A program made the position numbers and the translations under genes. From positions 1 through 45,326 of the IMG/VR virus record IMGVR_UViG_3300021121_000005: 45,326 nucleotides of DNA. One strand, 5' to 3'. The notes beneath the pieces were generated by a model. That model did no database searches, was not told the DNA's origin, and worked only from the letters and a program-made list of their open reading frames with translations. Origin of the DNA: a virus. Taxonomy: Duplodnaviria > Caudoviricetes. Positions 3,644 to 28,805 of the stretch are shown one piece after another (the first letter of the stretch is position 1; every line of letters begins with the position of its first letter).

Positions 3644-4098
3644 GTTAATCCCCAAAGAGTTCCAATAGTTTGCATAAAAGCTAATGCTTGTCTGCCATAA
3701 GGATCTTTAATTGCTTGTAAATCTAATAATTGTAGATTTTGTAATCCTTTGCCTATTGTCAATGTTTCACTGGTGGAAACATCGCTTGCAGAGCTTATTA
3801 CTCCAGCTACAAAATTATTCATGCCATAGGCTTGTCTTGCATCAGCAAAAAATGTTTGACCTGCATAATCTTGTTGCCACTGTATTAATTGACTACCACC
3901 CCAGTTATACACAGTTAAGGTATAAATATCAGGAACAGTATTAGCAAAATCTTTAGGAACAATGTCCAATGCAATTTGAAAAGCATAGGCATATCCTTGA
4001 TCTGTAGGACTTATGACTACAGAATTCAATCCCATTACAGCTTGTGACCAAGCTACAAAACCTGCTAATGTTGGTGGAGAAGTAATGGGATCACTCAT
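3640..4098 (-). CDS. Putative head-tail adaptor (DUF4054-like)
   Basis: GVISSASDVSTS and DPYGRQALAF motifs typical of this adaptor type; follows the capsid genes. Confidence 0.6.
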   Translation of the reverse strand: MSDPITSPPTLAGFVAWSQAVMGLNSVVISPTDQGYAYAFQIALDIVPKDFANTVPDIYTLTVYNWGGSQLIQWQQDYAGQTFFADARQAYGMNNFVAGVISSASDVSTSETLTIGKGLQNLQLLDLQAIKDPYGRQALAFMQTIGTLWGLT

Positions 4099-4129
4099 AA
4101 TCAAATTGTACCTAAGTTAAATTAAAAAA

Positions 4130-4636
4130 TCATGCTTTTCTTGGTCTACCTCTACCTTTTGGAGCAATACCTTCTTTTACTACTTCAATGGTTTGTTCAA
4201 ATTTAGGTTCATTATCAGCATAATGCTTTCTTTCTTCGATGATTTCCACTTCCAAAGGTGCTTTTTGCTTTAAACCCATTTGTTGAGCAGTTTCAGATAT
4301 TTTTTGATCTGATGCTACTGCTGTAATTTTTCTTGCTTCAGTTGCTCTATCAATCATGGCTTGATCTCTTACAGAAATGCCATTTTCAATAGCTTCAACA
4401 TTAACAGGCTTGTCTATACGATAAGCCATTCCTGAAAAATTACCTTTAATTTTATCTACAGGTACTAACCCATAAACCTCATGTTGTTTTATGATTTGAT
4501 CAATTTCATCTTTTGATCCTTGAATCTTAACTTGTGATCCAGCCCTTATTCTTTCCATAAAAGGTCTTGGATTTTCAAACAACATATAAGTAAATTGATG
4601 ATCCTGTTTTGTACAATTAGCTATATAAAGTTCCAT
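4130..4636 (-). CDS. Hypothetical head-associated protein
   Basis: Likely start MELYIANCTKQ at 4636 with GGGGA RBS; basic C-terminus KGRGRPRKA; the upstream in-frame extension overlaps a structured RNA. Confidence 0.65.
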   Translation of the reverse strand: MELYIANCTKQDHQFTYMLFENPRPFMERIRAGSQVKIQGSKDEIDQIIKQHEVYGLVPVDKIKGNFSGMAYRIDKPVNVEAIENGISVRDQAMIDRATEARKITAVASDQKISETAQQMGLKQKAPLEVEIIEERKHYADNEPKFEQTIEVVKEGIAPKGRGRPRKA

Positions 4637-4650
4637 AATATTTCCCCAGT

Positions 4651-4730
4651 TGGGTGGGTGACAGATGATGCGGCACTTCTTTTGAAAGTACCCTGCCACC
4701 CATTGTTACAAACTTGGCATCACACAAGTC
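4651..4730 (-). ncRNA. Putative pseudoknotted structured RNA or 5' leader
   Basis: Hairpin ACUUG-UGUGAUGC-CAAGU; stem UGGGUGGCAG/CUGUCACCCA; inner stem GGUACUU/AAGUGCC; bulge GCAUCAU complementary to the first loop; TGnTATAGT extended -10 immediately upstream. Confidence 0.6.
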
Positions 4731-4744
4731 TTAATACTATAACA

Positions 4745-4900
4745 TTAACTTTTTGAAGCTGGTGATTCTGATGTATTATCTTTTGATACTTCAGGAGCAG
4801 GAGTGTCATTTACAACTGAATCGTTGTTTTTCTTTCCCATAAACTCACGAACTTCTTCCATGAATTTTTCCAATTCTCTAAGAACATTTTCAATCATCAT
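4745..4900 (-). CDS. Small hypothetical protein
   Basis: Start MMIENVLRELEK at 4900 behind an AAGGA RBS. Confidence 0.55.
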   Translation of the reverse strand: MMIENVLRELEKFMEEVREFMGKKNNDSVVNDTPAPEVSKDNTSESPASKS

Positions 4901-4913
4901 ATTTTTTTCCTTT

Positions 4914-4941
4914 AAAAAAAACCCCACAATTAAGTGGGGTT
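4914..4941 (-). terminator. Rho-independent terminator after the major capsid gene
   Basis: AACCCCAC/GTGGGGTT stem followed by a T-run on the minus strand. Confidence 0.8.
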
Positions 4942-4962
4942 AGTCTACTTCGCACATGAAAA

Positions 4963-5988
4963 TTAATAAGCCGCAGATAACAAATACATAGCTTCAGGTC
5001 TTAAACCCCAACCTGATGTAGATCTCATTGTGTATAAAGTTGTAATGCCACCATCAGGGATTGGAGTAGGAATCTCTGTAGGAGCAGATACATCAGTAAG
5101 CATCAATGAAGTAGCTGTTGTATTAGGTGTTAATGTAGCAAAAATGTTAGTGTTGATCTGAGCATTAGCTTTAGGGATGTTGAGTTCAGGAGCAATTAAA
5201 AGAATTGCGTCTGTACCACCAGCACCTTGACCAATCAAAGTATCATCAACTGCAAAACTAACATCATCACCACCTGCCCACTTAGCAACTGTTTCAACTA
5301 AACCTGCCGCTGTTTCAACACCAGCGCCAATTCTTTGGAACTGAGTTAATGAAACAACACCTGAGTAGCTGATTTGGCTAATAAAGCGTTGTGGAGCTAA
5401 GAATACTAAACGCAATGGCTGACCAATTTGCAATGTATTAGTCTTTAAAGTACCAATCATATTCAATAGGTATTGAGCCAATTGTCCTGAATCCCACTTG
5501 GAGTAGCCTGTATTACCATTAGTATCAGCACCTAAAGTAGATGTTGTAATACCAGCAGTATTGAGCAAGCCTTCACCATTTGAAGGATTGTATCCAAATA
5601 ACAATGCATTACGCAATTGTTGAGCAATACCTTGACGAGCCGCTAATCGCATAGCTTGTGGTAATGCATAACCCCAAACACCAGTAGCCGCTTCATCAAA
5701 GTTATCATACTGTGCTCTAGTTTGAACACGATATGTAGCAGTGCTGATCATAGAAGGAATGACTGAAGCACTTGGCAATTGGTTAAATTGAGATTGGTTA
5801 GCTTGAACCTGAGTTGTTACTTGTAGCTTTTTAGCATACACATACAAATCAGCTTCACCCAATCTTGGCATTGGATTTTCTGTAGCAAGGGTTGTAAACG
5901 CACCTGACGCTAAACTGTACTGCATAATCAGTTCAGGCATCATATAGTGTGGGTTAGCTGTTACAAATGAGGGAGCAAAGCCTGACAT
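4963..5988 (-). CDS. Major capsid protein (putative)
   Basis: 341 aa; follows the prohead and decoration genes and is followed by a terminator. Confidence 0.75.
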   Translation of the reverse strand: MSGFAPSFVTANPHYMMPELIMQYSLASGAFTTLATENPMPRLGEADLYVYAKKLQVTTQVQANQSQFNQLPSASVIPSMISTATYRVQTRAQYDNFDEAATGVWGYALPQAMRLAARQGIAQQLRNALLFGYNPSNGEGLLNTAGITTSTLGADTNGNTGYSKWDSGQLAQYLLNMIGTLKTNTLQIGQPLRLVFLAPQRFISQISYSGVVSLTQFQRIGAGVETAAGLVETVAKWAGGDDVSFAVDDTLIGQGAGGTDAILLIAPELNIPKANAQINTNIFATLTPNTTATSLMLTDVSAPTEIPTPIPDGGITTLYTMRSTSGWGLRPEAMYLLSAAY

Positions 5989-6661: not shown

Positions 6662-9262
6662 TTATCTTTTGAAGTTGTTGAGGTTGAATTCCTTAACTCT
6701 TTGAGCAGGAACTTTAAAAGCATCTAGCCAACCAAAACCACCTTTGAACTTGGTAATAGTACGACCTGAAGCATCTCTTTCCTTAATTTCATATTCTGCA
6801 TCATTAGCATACAAAGTAGGAGATTTAGCGGCTTTCAATGCGTCATTAAAAATTTGCTTTTCTGCAATAGAGAGCATCTTTTCACCCTTGATTTCTTTAA
6901 GAAGATTTACATCTTTATAAGTATCAGAGTATGCCTGTAATCCACGCAACAAACGCTTACGATAAGCAATTAAACTTTCGCCTTGTAATGGTCTTGAAGC
7001 AGATTTGCCAAATGATGCAAATACTGAATCAGCTTTAGCTTGAGCATCAGCATATTTTGCTTCTTCTTCATCCATCTTCATGGCTTCTTCATCTTTCTTA
7101 GACATTTTTTTGTCATCGTCATCATCGTCATCATCTTCATCTTTTTTGAATTCCATGTGACCCGGATGTTCTACTTTACCTTCATCATCAGGCTTCATTT
7201 CTCCAGCCTTTCCATATTCTTTAGGATCAGAGCCTTCAGAATCCATGCGATCATCATCGTCATCTTTACGCTTTTTAGCATCCATCTTTCTTTCCATGAA
7301 TTTCTTGGCTTCTGATTCTGATTCTTCTTCATCATCATCGCACATTGCATCATCATCGTCTTTTTTGGCTTTCTTTTTGTCAGCCGCAGTAACCAATGGT
7401 GGTGCTGGTAAGTTTTTTTCCATACTATCTACACGATAAGCAAGATTGCTCAAGGCTGATAGAATGGCATCTAATTTTTCACCTTGGGCATCTGCCTTTG
7501 GTGCATTTACATTTTCATTCATATTTGATACCTCAGGGTTAGTTAATAAAACTCCGGCTGGATCGCCACCTTTATCCCATACTCCCTTAGATCCTCTAGC
7601 TTTGGTAACAATAGCTATATGATCTAAAAGAAATGGAACACCTTCTATTAAGAGTGGTTCACCATTCTCAGTAGTAAGTGTAGTGTTTCCTGCTGTATTG
7701 TCAAATACAACAGAAGGGGATGTACTAATTTCACCTTCGCAAATCTCATTAATTGCGTTTTGATCGTAAATTTTAGCAATACCCCAAACTTCGTCACCTT
7801 TAATATAAGGTAACATAATACTTCCAACTGCTCTATCTTTGAATTCTTTTCCATTCAATACAGCAGTTTCAGGGTGATCCATGATCACCATTAAACCATT
7901 ACATCTTTTTAAAAATTCATCATTTAAATATAGTGACGAATCTCTCCAAACATATTCACCTATAGAACCTCTATATGCTAATCCAGTTCCAGTAATGCGA
8001 ATTGCCAATAGCATAATATTCGCATACATTTGTGGACTTGGCAAAACATTTGCTTTAACTAATTCTGCAACATCCAATTCAGTTTTAATACTTGCTACTT
8101 TCATTGCTATTTCTAAACCGGGGTGCAATGGCTGTGGTGGTTGATTAACAGGACACCAATCGTATCCAGTAGATTCATAATTTAGCTTAACATCGCACTT
8201 TTCAAAACCTCTTGCGATATAAGTACAAAATTGACCATCATCATGCAATACTTCAAGTTTGCCCTTGTAATCAATCCCTGTTTCCTCGAAACATTCTCTA
8301 CGAGCACATTCTTCTAAACTTTCATCTTTTGGGTTCTGATGACCACCGGGTACTGCCCATGTGTAAGGGTAATCCCCACCATCACCTCTGCGAATCATTA
8401 AAACTTCGCCACCATCAGTTAAAAATAATATTCCTGAAGCTCTGCCTTCTGCTCCAGCATCTTTAGCTATAGGCTTGGATTCTTGAGCAGGAACTTGTTC
8501 CCCATGAATATCTGAAATACTCATTGCTGAATCAGGTACACAATTAGGAACTTGTTTACCATTTTTTTCTTTCATACCTACTTGATGGTAATCTTGCCAG
8601 CATGGATCTTCATCAGGAATAGATTCTGCATAATCAATTAAAGCATCCAAGATATTGGTTAAATCATGCTTGACATCATCAGCATCACATTTCCACTTAC
8701 GCAAGGATTTATTAATTCTTGAATCAGGATCATGGGCTGTTTTTTCTGATGTTAATTTTGCTTTCATGCCCTTCATACGAGCACAAAATGACGCTTTTCT
8801 TGATCCACCTTCAGGTTGTGGAGCTTTTAAATGTGCATGGTGAGTTCTATTGTAGTTTTCTCTACCTTTTTCATTTAATCCACCATTTTTATTTTCACCT
8901 TTTTTGGTTTGCCAAACTTCAGTATCAACACCAAATCTAGGAACTAGTTCACCATTTCTGACCATTACATCATCAGATTGCATGGCTTTTTGTAGGTAAT
9001 TATCTACTTTTACACCTAGAATTTTACGACTAATAGCTTCTATTTCATGCCTAATTGAAGCAAGCTGATGCTTCGCTTCGCTTAATTCAGAGCTTTCATC
9101 TTCTATAAATTCAGGGGTACTTAATGGGGTGGGTTCTTCAGGGGATTCATCTTTTGAATGTTTGATGAATTTTTTTGCTACTTCTTTAGGGATGCCAATA
9201 TTGCTTTTGCCACTTGCCGCGGCATACATAGCTTTTCGTTGCTTTTCTGATTCAAATGGCAT
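6662..9262 (-). CDS. Composite prohead protein: N-terminal small modules + Nudix hydrolase + DUF2213-like protease/scaffold
   Basis: Nudix box GGHQNPKDESLEECARRECFEETGI; IRITGTG, MDHP, STSPSV and DHIAIV motifs; acidic low-complexity scaffold-like C-terminus. Confidence 0.75.
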   Translation of the reverse strand: MPFESEKQRKAMYAAASGKSNIGIPKEVAKKFIKHSKDESPEEPTPLSTPEFIEDESSELSEAKHQLASIRHEIEAISRKILGVKVDNYLQKAMQSDDVMVRNGELVPRFGVDTEVWQTKKGENKNGGLNEKGRENYNRTHHAHLKAPQPEGGSRKASFCARMKGMKAKLTSEKTAHDPDSRINKSLRKWKCDADDVKHDLTNILDALIDYAESIPDEDPCWQDYHQVGMKEKNGKQVPNCVPDSAMSISDIHGEQVPAQESKPIAKDAGAEGRASGILFLTDGGEVLMIRRGDGGDYPYTWAVPGGHQNPKDESLEECARRECFEETGIDYKGKLEVLHDDGQFCTYIARGFEKCDVKLNYESTGYDWCPVNQPPQPLHPGLEIAMKVASIKTELDVAELVKANVLPSPQMYANIMLLAIRITGTGLAYRGSIGEYVWRDSSLYLNDEFLKRCNGLMVIMDHPETAVLNGKEFKDRAVGSIMLPYIKGDEVWGIAKIYDQNAINEICEGEISTSPSVVFDNTAGNTTLTTENGEPLLIEGVPFLLDHIAIVTKARGSKGVWDKGGDPAGVLLTNPEVSNMNENVNAPKADAQGEKLDAILSALSNLAYRVDSMEKNLPAPPLVTAADKKKAKKDDDDAMCDDDEEESESEAKKFMERKMDAKKRKDDDDDRMDSEGSDPKEYGKAGEMKPDDEGKVEHPGHMEFKKDEDDDDDDDDKKMSKKDEEAMKMDEEEAKYADAQAKADSVFASFGKSASRPLQGESLIAYRKRLLRGLQAYSDTYKDVNLLKEIKGEKMLSIAEKQIFNDALKAAKSPTLYANDAEYEIKERDASGRTITKFKGGFGWLDAFKVPAQRVKEFNLNNFKR

Positions 9263-9272
9263 AAAAAATACC

Positions 9273-10070
9273 CTACTTAGTTTTTATTGATTGTAATGCC
9301 AATTCCCCTTTTTTTGTCAAAATATTTTTGCATTGTTTTAAATTGTATAAATACACATAATTGCACCTACAATACACTTCTTCACCGGGTTGCGTAATCT
9401 GATCAGTATAACCATTAGGATGAGTTAAATAACCTTCCTTATCAGCCCAAGATCCACGAATAACATAGATTTTTTCATCTCTCTCTTTGTGATCTTTACG
9501 ATAATCATAATTAATTTGTTTCCAGTGGCTATGCCATTTCCCAGCAATAGCTCCATTGTCTACTGCAACTATGTCATTGATATTAGATATTAATTTATGA
9601 GTTTGATCAATAATTACCCTTCTTTGTTCAAACCCTATTTTCCCTAAAGATTTACGAATATCCTTTTTTTGCTGTACACGATCTACAACTTTTGATCCAC
9701 CAGCAGGAATAGATGTTGCCCATCCTTCAAATCTACGCAAAACTGTATTGACTGCTTCTTCACGATTTAATTTAATTAAATTCGCTGATGTGACAATTCT
9801 ACGATCTAGTTCAGCTTGTAGTTTAGGTTTTAGCTTATCAACATCAAATTTACTGATGTTGCCTTTTACTAATGATCCTTTGGTGACTAATCTATAAAAA
9901 GCTGATCTAAGAGCTTTTTCTAATTCTTGCTGTATTTGAGATTCAGGGATAAGTTCAGCTATTGCTGATTTGTAAATTCTATCCATCCACATCCTGATTC
10001 GTTCTTCAGAATCATAACCATTTTCTATGATGTCATTAACAGCTTCAGTTAGGATTTCAAAAAATGTCAT
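9273..10070 (-). CDS. Head morphogenesis protein (MuF / SPP1 gp7-like)
   Basis: DQTHKL, W..H..R..H and PGEEVYCRC motifs. Confidence 0.8.
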   Translation of the reverse strand: MTFFEILTEAVNDIIENGYDSEERIRMWMDRIYKSAIAELIPESQIQQELEKALRSAFYRLVTKGSLVKGNISKFDVDKLKPKLQAELDRRIVTSANLIKLNREEAVNTVLRRFEGWATSIPAGGSKVVDRVQQKKDIRKSLGKIGFEQRRVIIDQTHKLISNINDIVAVDNGAIAGKWHSHWKQINYDYRKDHKERDEKIYVIRGSWADKEGYLTHPNGYTDQITQPGEEVYCRCNYVYLYNLKQCKNILTKKGELALQSIKTK

Positions 10071-10270
10071 TGTTTAATCTTTATAAGAAATAATTCCCAA
10101 GCACTTGGATGCATACGAGCTTTCCCATTTTCATAATTACTCCATCTTGCTTGTGTAGTATATATCAAACTGGATGCTTCAGATTGGCTTAATTTTCCCC
10201 TAGCAGAAATAATTTCTATAGGAGAAGGGACATACCCTTGTATGCCCCTTGATCTTTGTTTAATAACCAT
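10067..10270 (-). CDS. Small XRE-like HTH regulator
   Basis: LSQSEASSLIYTTQARWSNYENGKARM helix-turn-helix pattern. Confidence 0.75.
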   Translation of the reverse strand: MVIKQRSRGIQGYVPSPIEIISARGKLSQSEASSLIYTTQARWSNYENGKARMHPSAWELFLIKIKQ

Positions 10271-10279
10271 TAGTTAAAT

Positions 10280-10477
10280 TTAAACTCCTACCAATTGTTT
10301 TGAAACATTATATTTTGAAACTTCAATGCCCATTTGTATTAATTTATCAGCTGCTTCATCAGAATAGTTCATCCAAAGAACAGTATCAAATTCTCCACTA
10401 TCAACCATGTCTTTAGATACAAGCAAACTTCCAATTAAATCACTAATTAATTTTGCTTCTTTTTTACTAATTGCCAT
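10280..10477 (-). CDS. Hypothetical protein
   Basis: Start moved to the ATG at 10477 behind a CACGAAAGGA RBS box. Confidence 0.65.
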   Translation of the reverse strand: MAISKKEAKLISDLIGSLLVSKDMVDSGEFDTVLWMNYSDEAADKLIQMGIEVSKYNVSKQLVGV

Positions 10478-10483
10478 TTTTAT

Positions 10484-10542
10484 TCCTTTCGTGTTAATCA
10501 AGACTACATCTTTATATTAATGCTTATTAAGCATAGTGTCAA
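10484..10542 (-). promoter_or_regulatory. Sigma70-type promoter with palindromic operator and CACGAAAGGA box
   Basis: TTGACA-17 nt-TAATAT; spacer contains ATGCTTAATAAGCAT; followed by TGTAGT and CACGAAAGGA. Confidence 0.7.
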
Positions 10543-11060
10543 GCAATTTGTTGCTTTTTTTTCATTAAATTTAAAAATATTTCTATTAAATAAGGATTGT
10601 CAATATTGGCTGAATTAAATACAGCTTGAGCAAATTCAAAATACTTTAGTTTTTTTTCTATGCTCCAGTTGGGTGGACTATCCAATACATCCCTGATATT
10701 GCAAATCTTATCAGCTACTTTGATTAGTTTTCCAGCATAGGAAATACTTTTTACCTTTTGAATTTGTGCCAATTTTCTATCTTCACCATCCAAGCCTACT
10801 GGATCAGTTACATCATCTACGATTTGAGCAATGCAATCATTAAACATATTGCCAATATCTGAAATGCTGATAGCACAATCTTCTACAACATCGTGCAATA
10901 GTGCAGAGCACAAAATATCTTCATCGTGTATACCAGCTTCAAACAATAGTTTAGCAACTGCTATTGGGTGATTAATATATGGAGTTGCATTTGCATCAAG
11001 TCTTTTTTGATCTCGATGCAAAGTGCTTGCCAGTGATATTGCATTAATTAAATTTTTCAA
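10539..11060 (-). CDS. HD-domain small alarmone hydrolase (Mesh1/Aph1-like)
   Basis: HRDQKR..PYINHP, LLHDVVED and KVADKICN motifs. Confidence 0.88.
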   Translation of the reverse strand: MKNLINAISLASTLHRDQKRLDANATPYINHPIAVAKLLFEAGIHDEDILCSALLHDVVEDCAISISDIGNMFNDCIAQIVDDVTDPVGLDGEDRKLAQIQKVKSISYAGKLIKVADKICNIRDVLDSPPNWSIEKKLKYFEFAQAVFNSANIDNPYLIEIFLNLMKKKQQIA

Positions 11061-11089
11061 TTTTTTTTCTTTCGCTTTCTCACAATATC

Positions 11090-11118
11090 ATAGTATCATG
11101 CTTAATAGGTATTTGCAA
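11090..11118 (-). promoter_or_regulatory. Promoter of the HD hydrolase gene with an operator in the spacer
   Basis: TTGCAA-17 nt-TACTAT; ATGCTTAATAGGTAT at 11098-11112. Confidence 0.6.
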
Positions 11119-11163
11119 GGATTTTATTAAAAATAAATATTTTTGTTTTTTTGGACAAATTAC

Positions 11164-11223
11164 TTTACATTTATGCTTAATAGGTATATTATAAAAATGT
11201 AGTCTTAATTAACCACGAAAGGA
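11164..11223 (+). promoter_or_regulatory. Promoter with operator and CACGAAAGGA box
   Basis: TTTACA-17 nt-TATTAT; ATGCTTAATAGGTAT at 11173-11187; TGTAGT; CACGAAAGGA at 11214-11223. Confidence 0.7.
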
Positions 11224-11230
11224 AATTAAA

Positions 11231-11407
11231 ATGCAGATCGCCCAAGCAATTGAAATTATTCAGGAATATCAAGTACAAAATGCTTTGCCTTTTATTTTGG
11301 AAGCTGTAATTGATATGCAAGACAATCGTGAAGATTTAAATCCACAACAACTTATTGCTTTGAATGTTTTTGTAGCAATGGGACAACAAATGTTTGCACC
11401 AGCCTAA
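11231..11407 (+). CDS. Small hypothetical protein (58 aa, not in ORF track)
   Basis: MQIAQAIEIIQEYQVQNALPFILEAVIDMQDN...; strong RBS and upstream promoter. Confidence 0.7.
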   Translation: MQIAQAIEIIQEYQVQNALPFILEAVIDMQDNREDLNPQQLIALNVFVAMGQQMFAPA

Positions 11408-11416
11408 GGAGAAAAA

Positions 11417-11728
11417 ATGAGATACGCAATGCACATAGCTTATTCAGATATAAATCCTTATGAAGTTATTAGGGTAGTTTCTGAAAAATGTATAGAGATC
11501 AGGGCAATGAAAGCTGAAAAAGCTCCTTCTTATAAGCCTGAATTTGTCGCTGGTGGTTTTAGTGCTGTTTGTATAAATCAAGGTGAACAAGAATGGATTA
11601 TTGAGCCTGACGAATCAGCACCAATTATCAGAATCAGAGCAAATAAGAAATTAGGTTGGGCTGATAAGTATGGACAGAAGTTTGTTTTAAGAGATAAGCC
11701 AGTTAAGTATTACGATTACAACTTTTAA
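11417..11728 (+). CDS. Hypothetical phage protein
   Basis: 103 aa, AAGGAG RBS, ends YYDYNF. Confidence 0.7.
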   Translation: MRYAMHIAYSDINPYEVIRVVSEKCIEIRAMKAEKAPSYKPEFVAGGFSAVCINQGEQEWIIEPDESAPIIRIRANKKLGWADKYGQKFVLRDKPVKYYDYNF

Positions 11729-11749
11729 AAAAAGCCCCCAGTAGGGGGC
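11727..11749 (-). terminator. Rho-independent terminator (T-tail on the minus strand)
   Basis: GCCCCC-AGTA-GGGGGC preceded by an A7 run on the plus strand. Confidence 0.65.
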
Positions 11750-11765
11750 AAACGAGGGAAAAATT

Positions 11766-12005
11766 ATGATGTCAAATCAAGAAATGTTGAAGTTCGCAAA
11801 TTATGTTTATAGCTTTTATGGTGCTGGTGGTGTTTATGACATGGGTGTTCCTATTGAAATTATAAGACAAGCTATTCGCTTTTTACAATCCAAAGATGGT
11901 AGAGAGTTTCGTAATGGTTGCCCTGTTTGTGGTGATTCTGTAGATCGTGAACACATCAGAGAAATATTAGAAAAAAAATATGGTTTTTTTGAAATAAACG
12001 CTTGA
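11766..12005 (+). CDS. Hypothetical phage protein
   Basis: 79 aa; FYGAGGVY...GDSVDRE; GAGG RBS. Confidence 0.65.
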   Translation: MMSNQEMLKFANYVYSFYGAGGVYDMGVPIEIIRQAIRFLQSKDGREFRNGCPVCGDSVDREHIREILEKKYGFFEINA

Positions 12006-12058
12006 CATTATGCTTAATTAGTATATACTGTAATTGTAGTAATTATTTCACGAAAGGA
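12002..12058 (+). promoter_or_regulatory. Promoter with operator and CACGAAAGGA box
   Basis: TTGACA-16 nt-TATACT; ATGCTTAATTAGTAT at 12010-12024; TGTAGT; CACGAAAGGA at 12049-12058. Confidence 0.72.
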
Positions 12059-12064
12059 ATAAAA

Positions 12065-12211
12065 ATGGAATTCGAAATTTATGGGTATTTGGTTCGGAAT
12101 TTAGAGCAAGCTAGAGCTGTTCTTGCTTTGGCTGTCGCAAAAGGGCAGTTAGGTAGACAAGCTGTGGCTTTGCAAGTGATCCAACAAATTCAACAACAAG
12201 GGGGTGTGTGA
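12065..12211 (+). CDS. Small hypothetical protein
   Basis: Start moved to the ATG at 12065 (MEFEIYGY...) behind the RBS box. Confidence 0.6.
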   Translation: MEFEIYGYLVRNLEQARAVLALAVAKGQLGRQAVALQVIQQIQQQGGV

Positions 12212-12813
12212 TGGCTGTTCGTGAGTTAAATAGGTATGTTCCTGCTGGTTATGAACCTTTGATGCAGGATGCAGAATATGGCATTGAGATCTTCGCTGAT
12301 TTAAATAGATTGTGTGCCATTGGTTTTGCTGGTAGAAGAAATAATCCTGATTTTAGGTATCGTTTTAGCAATGCAGAAAGGTTAAATGCTTATGTTGCTG
12401 AATATGCTCAAAGGATCAGAGGTAATGCCCAGTACAGAGCACAACAAAGGGCACAAAGGTTAGAAGCCAGTAGGCAAGTTGTTGTGAATGTTGGTGACAT
12501 TTTCAGAAGTAGCTGGGGATATGAACAAACAAATATTGATTATTATCAGGTTGTTGCTGTTCGTGGTCGTATGATAGATGTAAGACCTATCAGCCAGTTA
12601 AGAGAGGGAAATGGATGTCCTGATCAGGGTTACTGTGTTCCTGTTCCAAATAGCTTTGTGGGTGATGCAGTTAGTAGTTATCGTGCCCAAGGTGATGCTG
12701 AAAATGCTTACTTTAGAGTTGCGAGTTACGCAAATGCGTATAGAATTAATCCTGTGGCTGTTGTTGCTGGTGTTCCAATTTACGAGCAAAGTCATTGGAC
12801 TGCTTACTACTGA
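12208..12813 (+). CDS. Hypothetical protein (SWGYEQTN motif)
   Basis: 201 aa; VGDIFRSSWGYEQTNIDYYQVV segment that I recall from mobile-element accessory proteins. Confidence 0.7.
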   Translation: MMAVRELNRYVPAGYEPLMQDAEYGIEIFADLNRLCAIGFAGRRNNPDFRYRFSNAERLNAYVAEYAQRIRGNAQYRAQQRAQRLEASRQVVVNVGDIFRSSWGYEQTNIDYYQVVAVRGRMIDVRPISQLREGNGCPDQGYCVPVPNSFVGDAVSSYRAQGDAENAYFRVASYANAYRINPVAVVAGVPIYEQSHWTAYY

Positions 12814-12828
12814 TCTAGTAGGTTTTCC

Positions 12829-12853
12829 AGCCCCTTGAATAAAGGGGTTTTTT
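12829..12853 (+). terminator. Rho-independent terminator
   Basis: AGCCCCTT/AAGGGGTT stem followed by a T-run. Confidence 0.75.
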
Positions 12854-12903
12854 GCAAGCTAAAATCATAGTATTATGATAAAATATAACTGAAAGGATTT
12901 AAT

Positions 12904-13101
12904 ATGCAATTCGACAAATCAGCTAGATTCTATGTTACTGAGGATGGTATTCCTGTTGTTTGTGGTGGTGGTGGTGATCTACCTTACTGTTCAGCATGGG
13001 ATCGTAAAGAGCCAAGAGAATATAAACTAAGTGGCTTTTATATGCCCTGTAGTTATGAGGGTTTCGAAGAAGCTAGAATTTCTTGCCAAGCTGAATCATA
13101 A
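12904..13101 (+). CDS. Small protein, candidate immunity/antitoxin of the convergent synthetase
   Basis: 65 aa; GAAAGGA RBS; own TTGCAA/TATGAT promoter; 49-bp tail-to-tail overlap with 13053..13976. Function is inferred from context only. Confidence 0.5.
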   Translation: MQFDKSARFYVTEDGIPVVCGGGGDLPYCSAWDRKEPREYKLSGFYMPCSYEGFEEARISCQAES

Positions 13102-17510: not shown

Positions 17511-17890
17511 GGATCTATTCCATGTTCTACTGCAAAAGCCATAATGTATTCTATGAACTCTGACATTTCTGCCACTGTGAGGTGGGAAGTATGTCGAAAT
17601 ACAATATCTACTCCTTGGTAATCAATAGATGGTAATATTTCAATTGATTCACCTCTTGCTCTCAACCAACCAGCAGTAAGGAGTCTTTTCCATGTATCTA
17701 TTGCTCTTTTTTTTCCTGCCCATTCTACCTTTAATGATATTTTTTGGATGATGGTATGAAGTAATGCATTTTGTTCTAAGGATCTATTCTTGGGTTTGAT
17801 TTCAACAATATGTCCTTCAGGAGCTTTTTTGATCGCTTCTATTGCATTAATTCTTACTGCATCATTAGCAAGAATAAAAAATTCTTTCAT
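17507..17890 (-). CDS. ninB: NinB-family recombination protein
   Basis: RSLEQNALLH, WKRL, TSHLTVAEMSEFIEYIMAF. Confidence 0.85.
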   Translation of the reverse strand: MKEFFILANDAVRINAIEAIKKAPEGHIVEIKPKNRSLEQNALLHTIIQKISLKVEWAGKKRAIDTWKRLLTAGWLRARGESIEILPSIDYQGVDIVFRHTSHLTVAEMSEFIEYIMAFAVEHGIDP

Positions 17891-24572: not shown

Positions 24573-24579
24573 CCAGCTA

Positions 24580-24666
24580 TGGGGTGATGTAAGTCCTGAG
24601 CAAGACTATAAACCTACTTTCTGCTTTTTCACACAACCAAGCAGATCCTTTCGTGGCATCACCCCA
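24580..24666 (+). ncRNA. Putative three-stem antisense RNA exposing an anti-RBS seed
   Basis: P1 24580-24590/24656-24666 (11 bp); P2 AGUC/GACU; P3 UCUGCUU/AAGCAGA; unpaired UCCUUUCGUG (24646-24655) is the reverse complement of the repeated CACGAAAGGA box. Confidence 0.65.
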
Positions 24667-24759
24667 CCCCATAAAAACAACAAACTATGATAAATAATTA
24701 TTGCTAATATCATAGTTCTATGTAATACTATGATTGTAGTAATTAATGAAAGGTTAGTT

Positions 24760-28365: not shown

Positions 28366-28589
28366 TGTGTTAAATAATGTTTAATTAAATCAATAACAAA
28401 TTCTTTACCAAACAAAACTGAAAATATAACAACATACAACATATATTCAATTTTCTGCATACGCTTAGTGCCATTATCAAATGCTTTTTGTATGCCTTCA
28501 TACCTCTCTGCACAAACTTGCTCATGGACAGAAAGTCTTTTGTCAGTATCGTGCACAATAGATTCGATTCCATCCATGAGAAGTTCCAT
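28362..28589 (-). CDS. Small coiled-coil plus TM protein (lysis-associated)
   Basis: LSVHEQVCAERY motif and a C-terminal TM helix. Confidence 0.65.
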   Translation of the reverse strand: MELLMDGIESIVHDTDKRLSVHEQVCAERYEGIQKAFDNGTKRMQKIEYMLYVVIFSVLFGKEFVIDLIKHYLTQ

Positions 28590-28756
28590 TATTGTACTGT
28601 TTCAGCAGTTTCAGCAGGTGCTTCTTGCTGAACTTGTGGAGCAACTTGAGTTTGTACTGCATTGATCAATTGAGCAACTTCAGTAAAAGGTTTAGTACCT
28701 AAATAACCAAGAATTGCATTGACGAGTTCAACTGTTAAATTTACGGATTGCATCAT
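28589..28756 (-). CDS. Small hypothetical protein (not in ORF track)
   Basis: MMQSVNLTVELVNAILGYLGTKPFTEVAQLI...; AAGGA RBS. Confidence 0.65.
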   Translation of the reverse strand: MMQSVNLTVELVNAILGYLGTKPFTEVAQLINAVQTQVAPQVQQEAPAETAETVQ

Positions 28757-28805
28757 TGTTCCTTAAAAAAATAGGCAAAATTACCTAAAAACATTATATA
28801 CAAAA

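Follow-up and report, generated by a model that had tools for sequence, protein, structure and literature searches.

A group of freshwater phages keeps an RNA of about 80 bases, folded into a pseudoknot, ahead of a block of tail genes, and the question raised by this locus is what such an RNA does there. The window analysed (the whole stretch of DNA) is a 45.3-kb virus record, 92% complete, with annotated terminase, portal, capsid, sheath, baseplate, fibre and lysis genes; a host search gave two genome matches, which are draft bins from different phyla. The RNA, here called the head RNA (4651..4744, minus strand), is flanked by the capsid-gene terminator and a 60-aa ORF on one side and by a 168-aa gene on the other, and RNA and gene together lie upstream of the tail sheath gene. 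An initial annotation had recognised a pseudoknotted RNA here and offered a cis-regulatory leader, a riboswitch- or ribozyme-like element, or a multimerising RNA in the manner of phi29 pRNA as possible roles. The reading that we favour, with a little more confidence than doubt, is that the head RNA is a precursor from which RNase P would free a hairpin, and that this hairpin would bind gene-start loops in trans and lower the translation of tail-assembly, accessory and lysis genes.

A covarying pseudoknot ahead of the tail genes

Along the minus strand the element opens with an extended -10 promoter element, TG-n-TATAGT (4736..4744; TG at 4744-4743, TATAGT at 4741-4736), which predicts a +1 at ~4729. 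It is followed by the P1 hairpin (4712..4729, loop UGUGAUGC), whose 8-nt loop, N-GUGAUGC (4724-4717), is of that length in 70/70 homologues as parsed and would act as a decoy in cis for a bulge further on. An A/U-rich single-stranded linker (4702..4711) ending in A(-2) U(-1) leads to the long P2/P3 hairpin (4656..4701), the predicted released small RNA, with RNase P predicted to cut at 4702/4701. P2 pairs 4702/4701-4693 with 4664-4656/4655 and varies from 7 to 11 bp; P3 pairs 4692-4686 with 4678-4672 and carries a highly variable loop. The 7-nt bulge GCAUCAU (4665..4671) is the pseudoknot partner of P1 and the proposed seed. An ACCC tail (4652..4655) mimics an acceptor end (A73 C74 C75) and also pairs with the downstream Shine-Dalgarno sequence of the 168-aa gene, GGGGA (4643..4647), which is predicted to be half-hidden by it. 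Promoter element, P1, P2, P3, bulge and tail all lie on the strand and at the places first annotated, and of the two strands the minus strand alone is more stably folded than its shuffles (z -3.4, vs z -0.15 for the plus strand).

Homologues were collected through the 168-aa protein, which gave 271 loci with 86 distinct upstream stretches, two without upstream DNA. The motif is found in 76/84 distinct orthologue leaders, yielding 70 distinct cores. It follows protein identity closely, being present in 76/77 leaders at 47% identity or more and 0/7 at 42% or less, so that the eight leaders lacking it belong to seven orthologues at 42% or below and one at 59%. Leaders were sorted with a pattern drawn up once the variants had been seen. 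A gene-independent scan with a DNA pattern gave 79 matches, and the 168-aa gene lies within 1.5 kb of all 58 structured ones and of none of the 21 unstructured ones. Upstream of one distant orthologue, 38% identical, the int-alpA RNA (RF02996) occupies the same position (L308:196-261); it has another fold and sequence, and the head-RNA model R2 does not match this locus.

A first structure model, made from a plain alignment, retained only the 7-bp pairing and was replaced. In the model-fitted alignment 98.1% of cells are paired, with two-sided changes in 21/26 pairs, and all three stems covary: 4/4 counted pairs in P1 (100% paired), 9/9 in P2 and 6/6 in P3. A control with slid partners pairs in only 40-53%, and a model-free parse is in agreement with the fitted alignment. 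The loop-bulge helix, GUGAUGC/GCAUCAU, pairs in 489/490 cells, the single break being in L278. Two-sided changes occur at 2/7 of its pairs (GUCAAGC/GCUUGAU in L243 and L272, GUGAAGC/GCUUCAU in L367), and in three homologues its G-U is replaced by G-C. On a tree of 70 downstream proteins (66 with the RNA and 4 without, a further 4 RNA-bearing loci having been dropped for truncated ORFs) the compensated sequences fall in one subclade, mixed with standard ones, and therefore represent about one to three independent events. The covariation on which the initial annotation had staked its pseudoknot is thus present, and the head RNA is a real structure.

The topology, a two-way junction plus bulge with the apical loop paired to the bulge, is kept in 70/70. 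It is that of the branched kissing loop, in which a hairpin loop pairs with a bulge between two helices and of which 14 natural examples are listed in the accessible text of PMC8457670; the head RNA is not among the examples in that text, and differs in that its bulge appears with one cis and many possible trans partners. The pseudoknot sequence is nearly constant, whereas all stems vary freely, and among the 70 homologues no nucleotide is invariant outside the 7-bp pairing and the G+1/A73 end.

It had been anticipated that the region might instead be translated as the N-terminus of the downstream protein. This coding (uORF) reading was rejected, as the AUG in P2 has no constant frame relative to the gene (34/21/15 homologues in the three frames); AUG or UUG is missing from the P2 start position in 6/70 homologues. 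The RNA is also single-copy, with no second copy or mobile repeat in the window (next model match at E 0.19) and one strong match each in 20/20 records and in 25/29 of another set, where the four misses were one contig with an RNA-less orthologue and three pattern-only matches. Rfam 15, whose families include C4, c4-2, int-alpA, riboswitches and small ribozymes, gives no match at gathering score in the window, and over 4651-4744 no family appears even at E up to 10, in keeping with the annotators' inability to assign one. Literature searches found no description of the head RNA, and the text supplements of PMC10690425 (10,000 candidate viral RNAs) hold no match to the motif, an unnamed listing in the alignments of that work being possible. 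It is apparently an RNA family undescribed so far.

The 168-aa gene (phrog_6737; 4130..4636, minus strand), to which the RNA is always linked, is the first past the capsid block and precedes the tail sheath gene. Its protein had no named match in fold searches or an Atlas family search, and is also found in phages without the head RNA. The C-terminus (4130-4160, minus strand) carries an AT-hook-like GRGRPRK, conserved throughout the clade. The terminator after the major capsid gene (4920..4941, minus strand) is the sole terminator-like site within 4000-5200 and separates the RNA transcript from the head operon; between the head RNA and the 168-aa gene there is none. Metatranscriptome contig cover stops at 4941-4971, by this terminator, in 7/8 runs, a weak hint that it is functional. 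The head RNA is covered in 0/8 runs, which is evidence in neither direction since contigs cannot show a small RNA.

Gene order around the element varies. Close relatives of the window have a short acidic ORF (4745-4900, minus strand) between capsid terminator and promoter, and in most homologues the promoter follows the terminator immediately, without this ORF. Elsewhere in the window a prohead protease/scaffold-like gene (DUF2213) is fused to DUF6321 and NUDIX domains (6662-9262, minus strand), and the head operon is split between two head-morphogenesis genes by a block of small genes (10067-12904), among them one for an HD-type phosphohydrolase and several ORFs on the plus strand.

Promoter and RNase P-type ends

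That the RNA has an extended -10 promoter of its own, as first annotated, is borne out by its homologues. TAnnnT stands 9-13 nt before the loop in 58/70, of which 42 have TG, compared with 5/67 and 7/55, none with TG, in shifted-window controls; twelve homologues have no clear -10 box. The fixed distance of the box places +1 at the start of P1, where we infer that transcription begins.

The ends of the P2/P3 hairpin are conserved in a different manner from its interior. The closing pair G+1-C72 and A73 are each present in 70/70, alongside A-2 (58/70), U-1 (64/70), C74 (64/70), C75 (69/70) and C76 (66/70). There is no G at -1 to -4, and the distance from loop end to G+1 is 15-18 nt in the 70 homologues; six of them end in A-U-C or A-U-U in place of A-C-C. 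The parser took the outermost G-C before an A, and the helix extends at most one pair further in 70/70. A73 is kept in 6/6 sequences whose -1 base, not being U, cannot pair with it.

These ends match the contacts of RNase P as described in the available portions of PMC11143913 and PMC12710915, namely G+1-C72, a U-1/A-2 leader and a 3' RCC, and the head RNA has all of them, its leader being single-stranded. The 4.5S RNA of E. coli, a verified RNase P substrate according to the text available for PMC5499578, has a 3'-CCC end. Like pre-4.5S and model RNase P hairpins, the head RNA has a long stem, a G after U and an A-C-C end; it differs in lacking an SRP domain, in a 5' leader that folds onto the stem and in a 3' side that runs into mRNA. 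Against an ACC rule, the single betaproteobacterial 4.5S gene examined ends in AAC. Pairing with the Shine-Dalgarno sequence offers a second explanation for the CCC of the tail, and would compete with RNase P: the CC..GG pairing is possible in 66/70 homologues, and the Shine-Dalgarno sequence is predicted to be unpaired at less than 0.5 in 59/69. After removal of P1 the bulge is predicted to be unpaired at more than 0.8 in 70/70. On the pattern of its ends, the head RNA is likely to be cut free by host RNase P.

A parallel case is found downstream of ssb (24577..24669, plus strand), where an RNA of a different family shares the U|GG..CC|ACC ends and carries a seed of its own. Such ends occur on the ssb RNAs of the window, G003, G005, G006, G043, L403 and L410, with an inner sequence unrelated to the head RNA. 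The unpaired seed CCUUUCGUG complements CACGAAAGG at the ribosome sites of six or more genes in the window (near 10500, 11070, 11230, 12065, 22463 and 22801), and such matches involve 5-12 genes per genome across the window, G003, G006 and G043. G005 has an altered seed, with the matching change in five ribosome sites. The initial annotation had likened the two RNAs to each other; the likeness holds for the ends and for the unpaired seed 3' of the inner hairpin, and fails as regards a common family, the head-RNA model having no match to the ssb RNA. A pairing of GGCAUCAC in the ssb RNA with the P1 loop is lost in the ssb relatives L403 and L410 and was treated as chance. The ssb RNA has the look of a second antisense RNA with multiple targets and RNase P-type ends, and the apparent use of such ends with a free seed elsewhere in these phages raises the odds for the same reading of the head RNA.

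Seed-matching hairpins at other gene starts

A first look for the complement of the bulge, in 17 records, found RUGAUGC at gene starts. Start regions hold 20 copies of the word, a few of them at falsely called genes, where 8.7 would be expected (rank 78 of 4096); its sister words show no enrichment there. The target word had been spotted before it was tested, and the gene starts came from our own simple gene caller. When position in a hairpin is considered, R-UGAUGC is the top of 4096 words lying flush at the 3' edge of 8-9 nt gene-start hairpin loops (13/29 occurrences, background 4.4%, 1144 start regions). In a larger set (1538 genes from 40 records) such loop tags account for 29/80 occurrences at gene starts and 10/216 in gene bodies, against a background of 3.2%, and in four RNA-less control phages for 1/9. 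The genomes are related, so these tag counts overstate the number of independent events.

The tags form 23 distinct hairpins whose first base is A or G only (0/24 with C or U), as would be expected of pairing with the U at the bulge end. The 3' end of the bulge is U rather than C in 67/70, which makes the cis pair weaker, yet allows both AUG- and GUG-type sites to be read. One clade retains the hairpin with GUGGUGC, which still pairs through G-U. Tags (N-RUGAUGC) are found on an inferred tail chaperone, tail fibre, glycosyltransferase and holin-like genes, and the gene that heads the lysis cassette, and within gene families the tag moves between positions. Two lie on the strand opposite the RNA (G001, G045), for which a trans factor is needed.

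The chaperone assignment of the 190-aa gene is inferred from its position, a database search having given no name. In this gene codons for V-M-x form the loop, which is closed by a stem of up to 9 bp, and Val is GTG in 17/17 distinct sequences without a start-codon tag, compared with 13% of Val usage overall and 25/101 in the same context elsewhere. In the two exceptions, one of which is the near-twin of the window (G043), the tag has relocated to the start codon.

In the window, AUGAUGC (28750..28756, minus strand) lies on the start codon of a 55-aa gene (28589..28756), the first in the overlapping holin-to-endolysin cassette; this copy has no clean hairpin. The site is present in 6/7 members of the family, on the start codon or ~27 nt upstream, and in 3/5 members from held-out records, two of them identical in sequence; it is missing from one RNA-less phage and three loci of undetermined RNA status. 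A TATAAT box and a GGU-AAUUUU-GCC hairpin (GGC-AAUNNN-GCC in relatives) precede this gene at 28760-28802 (minus strand), which makes a separate promoter for the lysis cassette probable. A further candidate target is a P1-like hairpin in the first codons of ninB (17850..17875, minus strand; 9-bp stem, loop AAUGAUGC), found only here and in the near-identical G043. Taken together, word position, base choice and codon use indicate that the tag sites are under selection.

Several counts go against targeting of many genes. A crude test of promoter proximity gave 18/87, seven of them the head RNA itself, vs 10/55 for a control word, and a genome-wide hairpin count gave 29/385 vs 3/62; neither shows enrichment. 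Contigs with a variant seed (G013-G016) have no tag of any type in 82 genes, and stop before the lysis region; pattern scans for variant-seed tags returned only short contigs or unrelated phages, none of the variant clade. By script, 9/41 pieces are tagless, all of them RNA-bearing: the near-complete G007 and G006, of which G006 carries the tag word in a 3-bp stem, the 74% complete G019 and six shorter fragments.

The main rival, to which we give a minor though real share of belief, is that a phage or host protein reads N-RUGAUGC loops as operators. P1 would then be one such site, with the bulge as its competitor in cis, and the leader would serve to switch either the downstream gene or its processing. 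A protein would account for the tags, the fixed loop size, the near-invariant loop and the presence on both strands. Small hairpins before phage ribosome sites are also common: GGGC-AAUCAA-GCCC, for which Rfam had no match in 12 tested, stands right before a ribosome site and ATG in 32/49 matches from unrelated phage contigs (L513, L517-L560), and some upstream tags may therefore belong to a wider hairpin class. A protein reader leaves unexplained why the bulge ends in U rather than C, why the first base of the tags is always a purine, the variant that still pairs by G-U and the RNase P-type ends common to the ssb RNA. No candidate RNA-binding protein was found, and the downstream protein is present in RNA-less phages too.

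Less likely again is a leader acting purely in cis, as the initial annotation had proposed among its options. The pseudoknot would stabilise the 5' end or time RNase P cleavage, the tail would hide the Shine-Dalgarno sequence and so set the dose of the first neck or tail gene, and the other sites would be a separate class. Part of this proposal stands, given the widespread tail pairing, the strict linkage of a single-copy RNA to one gene with no terminator between them, and the other structured RNA in the same place at L308. What it cannot accommodate are the matching loops at other genes: the exact match of the P1 loop to 23 distinct gene-start hairpins and the codon constraint are left to coincidence, and the near-constant pseudoknot amid freely varying stems is unexplained.

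The remaining readings are all very improbable. Loop-bulge kissing is known from the pistol and twister ribozymes and from THF, ZTP and c-di-GMP-II riboswitches (in the accessible text of PMC8457670), and the leader does stand before a hidden ribosome site; a ligand-binding riboswitch or self-cleaving ribozyme on such a core is nevertheless hard to credit when Rfam gives no match, the invariant positions are only pseudoknot pairs or the G+1/A73 end, and the downstream genes are structural, not metabolic. An antiterminator heading the long tail operon has precedents in HK022 put and EAR. Slightly less credible still, it would suit an RNA at a promoter's +1 ahead of a long same-strand gene block, and several tags that also follow -10-like boxes, and is opposed by terminator-like sites at chance in the scanned regions (11 vs 12.3; 10 vs 9.6) and by tags within coding regions and on start codons, which suit translation better. 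Least credible is a phi29 pRNA-like RNA multimerising hand in hand on the prohead, because the head RNA, for all its kissing interaction (in which loop and bulge could pair between molecules) and adjoining capsid gene, lacks both the three-way junction found in all pRNAs according to the text available for PMC4201828 and a terminator of its own, the window has small and large terminase genes, and distant phages with the same head genes lack the RNA. In suggesting kissing between molecules the initial annotation was nonetheless probably right in spirit, with mRNAs rather than copies of the RNA as the partner.

A candidate RNA regulator of late genes

If the head RNA is the precursor of a trans-acting hairpin, its action can be laid out in steps. 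Transcription would begin at P1, as the conserved -10 suggests, and the P1 loop would dock on the bulge, a pairing supported by covariation, and so presumably mask the seed. RNase P may then cut at U|G, guided by G+1-C72 and ACC, to judge from the conservation of these determinants. A second cut and trimming past ACC(C) would free a hairpin of ~50 nt and unmask the neighbouring Shine-Dalgarno sequence. The freed bulge would kiss P1-like loops holding or flanking start codons, at the sites whose selection was described above, and a helix on or beside the ribosome site would be expected from its position to reduce initiation. The 7-bp kiss is a modest one, and the cut-off P1 piece could remain bound to the hairpin.

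The C4 RNA is reported to be processed by RNase P, as is the CI RNA. The C4 RNA of phages P1 and P7 and the CI RNA of satellite P4 are cut from a longer transcript, have unpaired seeds and act on targets near ribosome sites, and in P4 a complementary sequence, seqA, lies upstream within CI's own precursor (accessible portions of PMC4825925 and PMC12197685). The head RNA likewise has an unpaired seed in a stable hairpin, a complementary P1 loop upstream in its own precursor, with compensatory changes, and complementary sites at translation starts, though not in every genome. It differs in having no Rfam match and one bulged hairpin with one 7-nt seed rather than a multi-loop structure, in lying in the late head-tail region and not in immunity, with tags mostly on tail, accessory and lysis-region genes, and in its numerous proposed targets, hairpin loops that lie far off and in some cases on the opposite strand. 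By analogy, it would work like C4 and CI while standing outside those families.

A broader version, to which we lend somewhat less than even credence, is that these phages have an RNA-only regulon of late genes, in which an RNase P-activated hairpin, shut by its decoy, docks on 'address' loops of 8-9 nt. Placed where tail-chaperone, tail-fibre, modification and lysis genes begin, these loops would allow dose to be tuned and lysis to be delayed, and a second RNA of the same design would act on the ribosome sites of early genes. For most environmental phages it is poorly understood how tail parts are kept in balance and lysis delayed when no late regulator is recognised, and the head RNA offers a small system open to direct test, with a single 50-nt hairpin, a seed of 7 nt, target loops that can move and a host enzyme as the predicted trigger. 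If the reading is true, control of the C4/CI type would reach beyond immunity into the late genes, loop-bulge kissing would have a natural code, and U|G..C|ACC ends with a free seed would provide a rule for finding other phage small RNAs.
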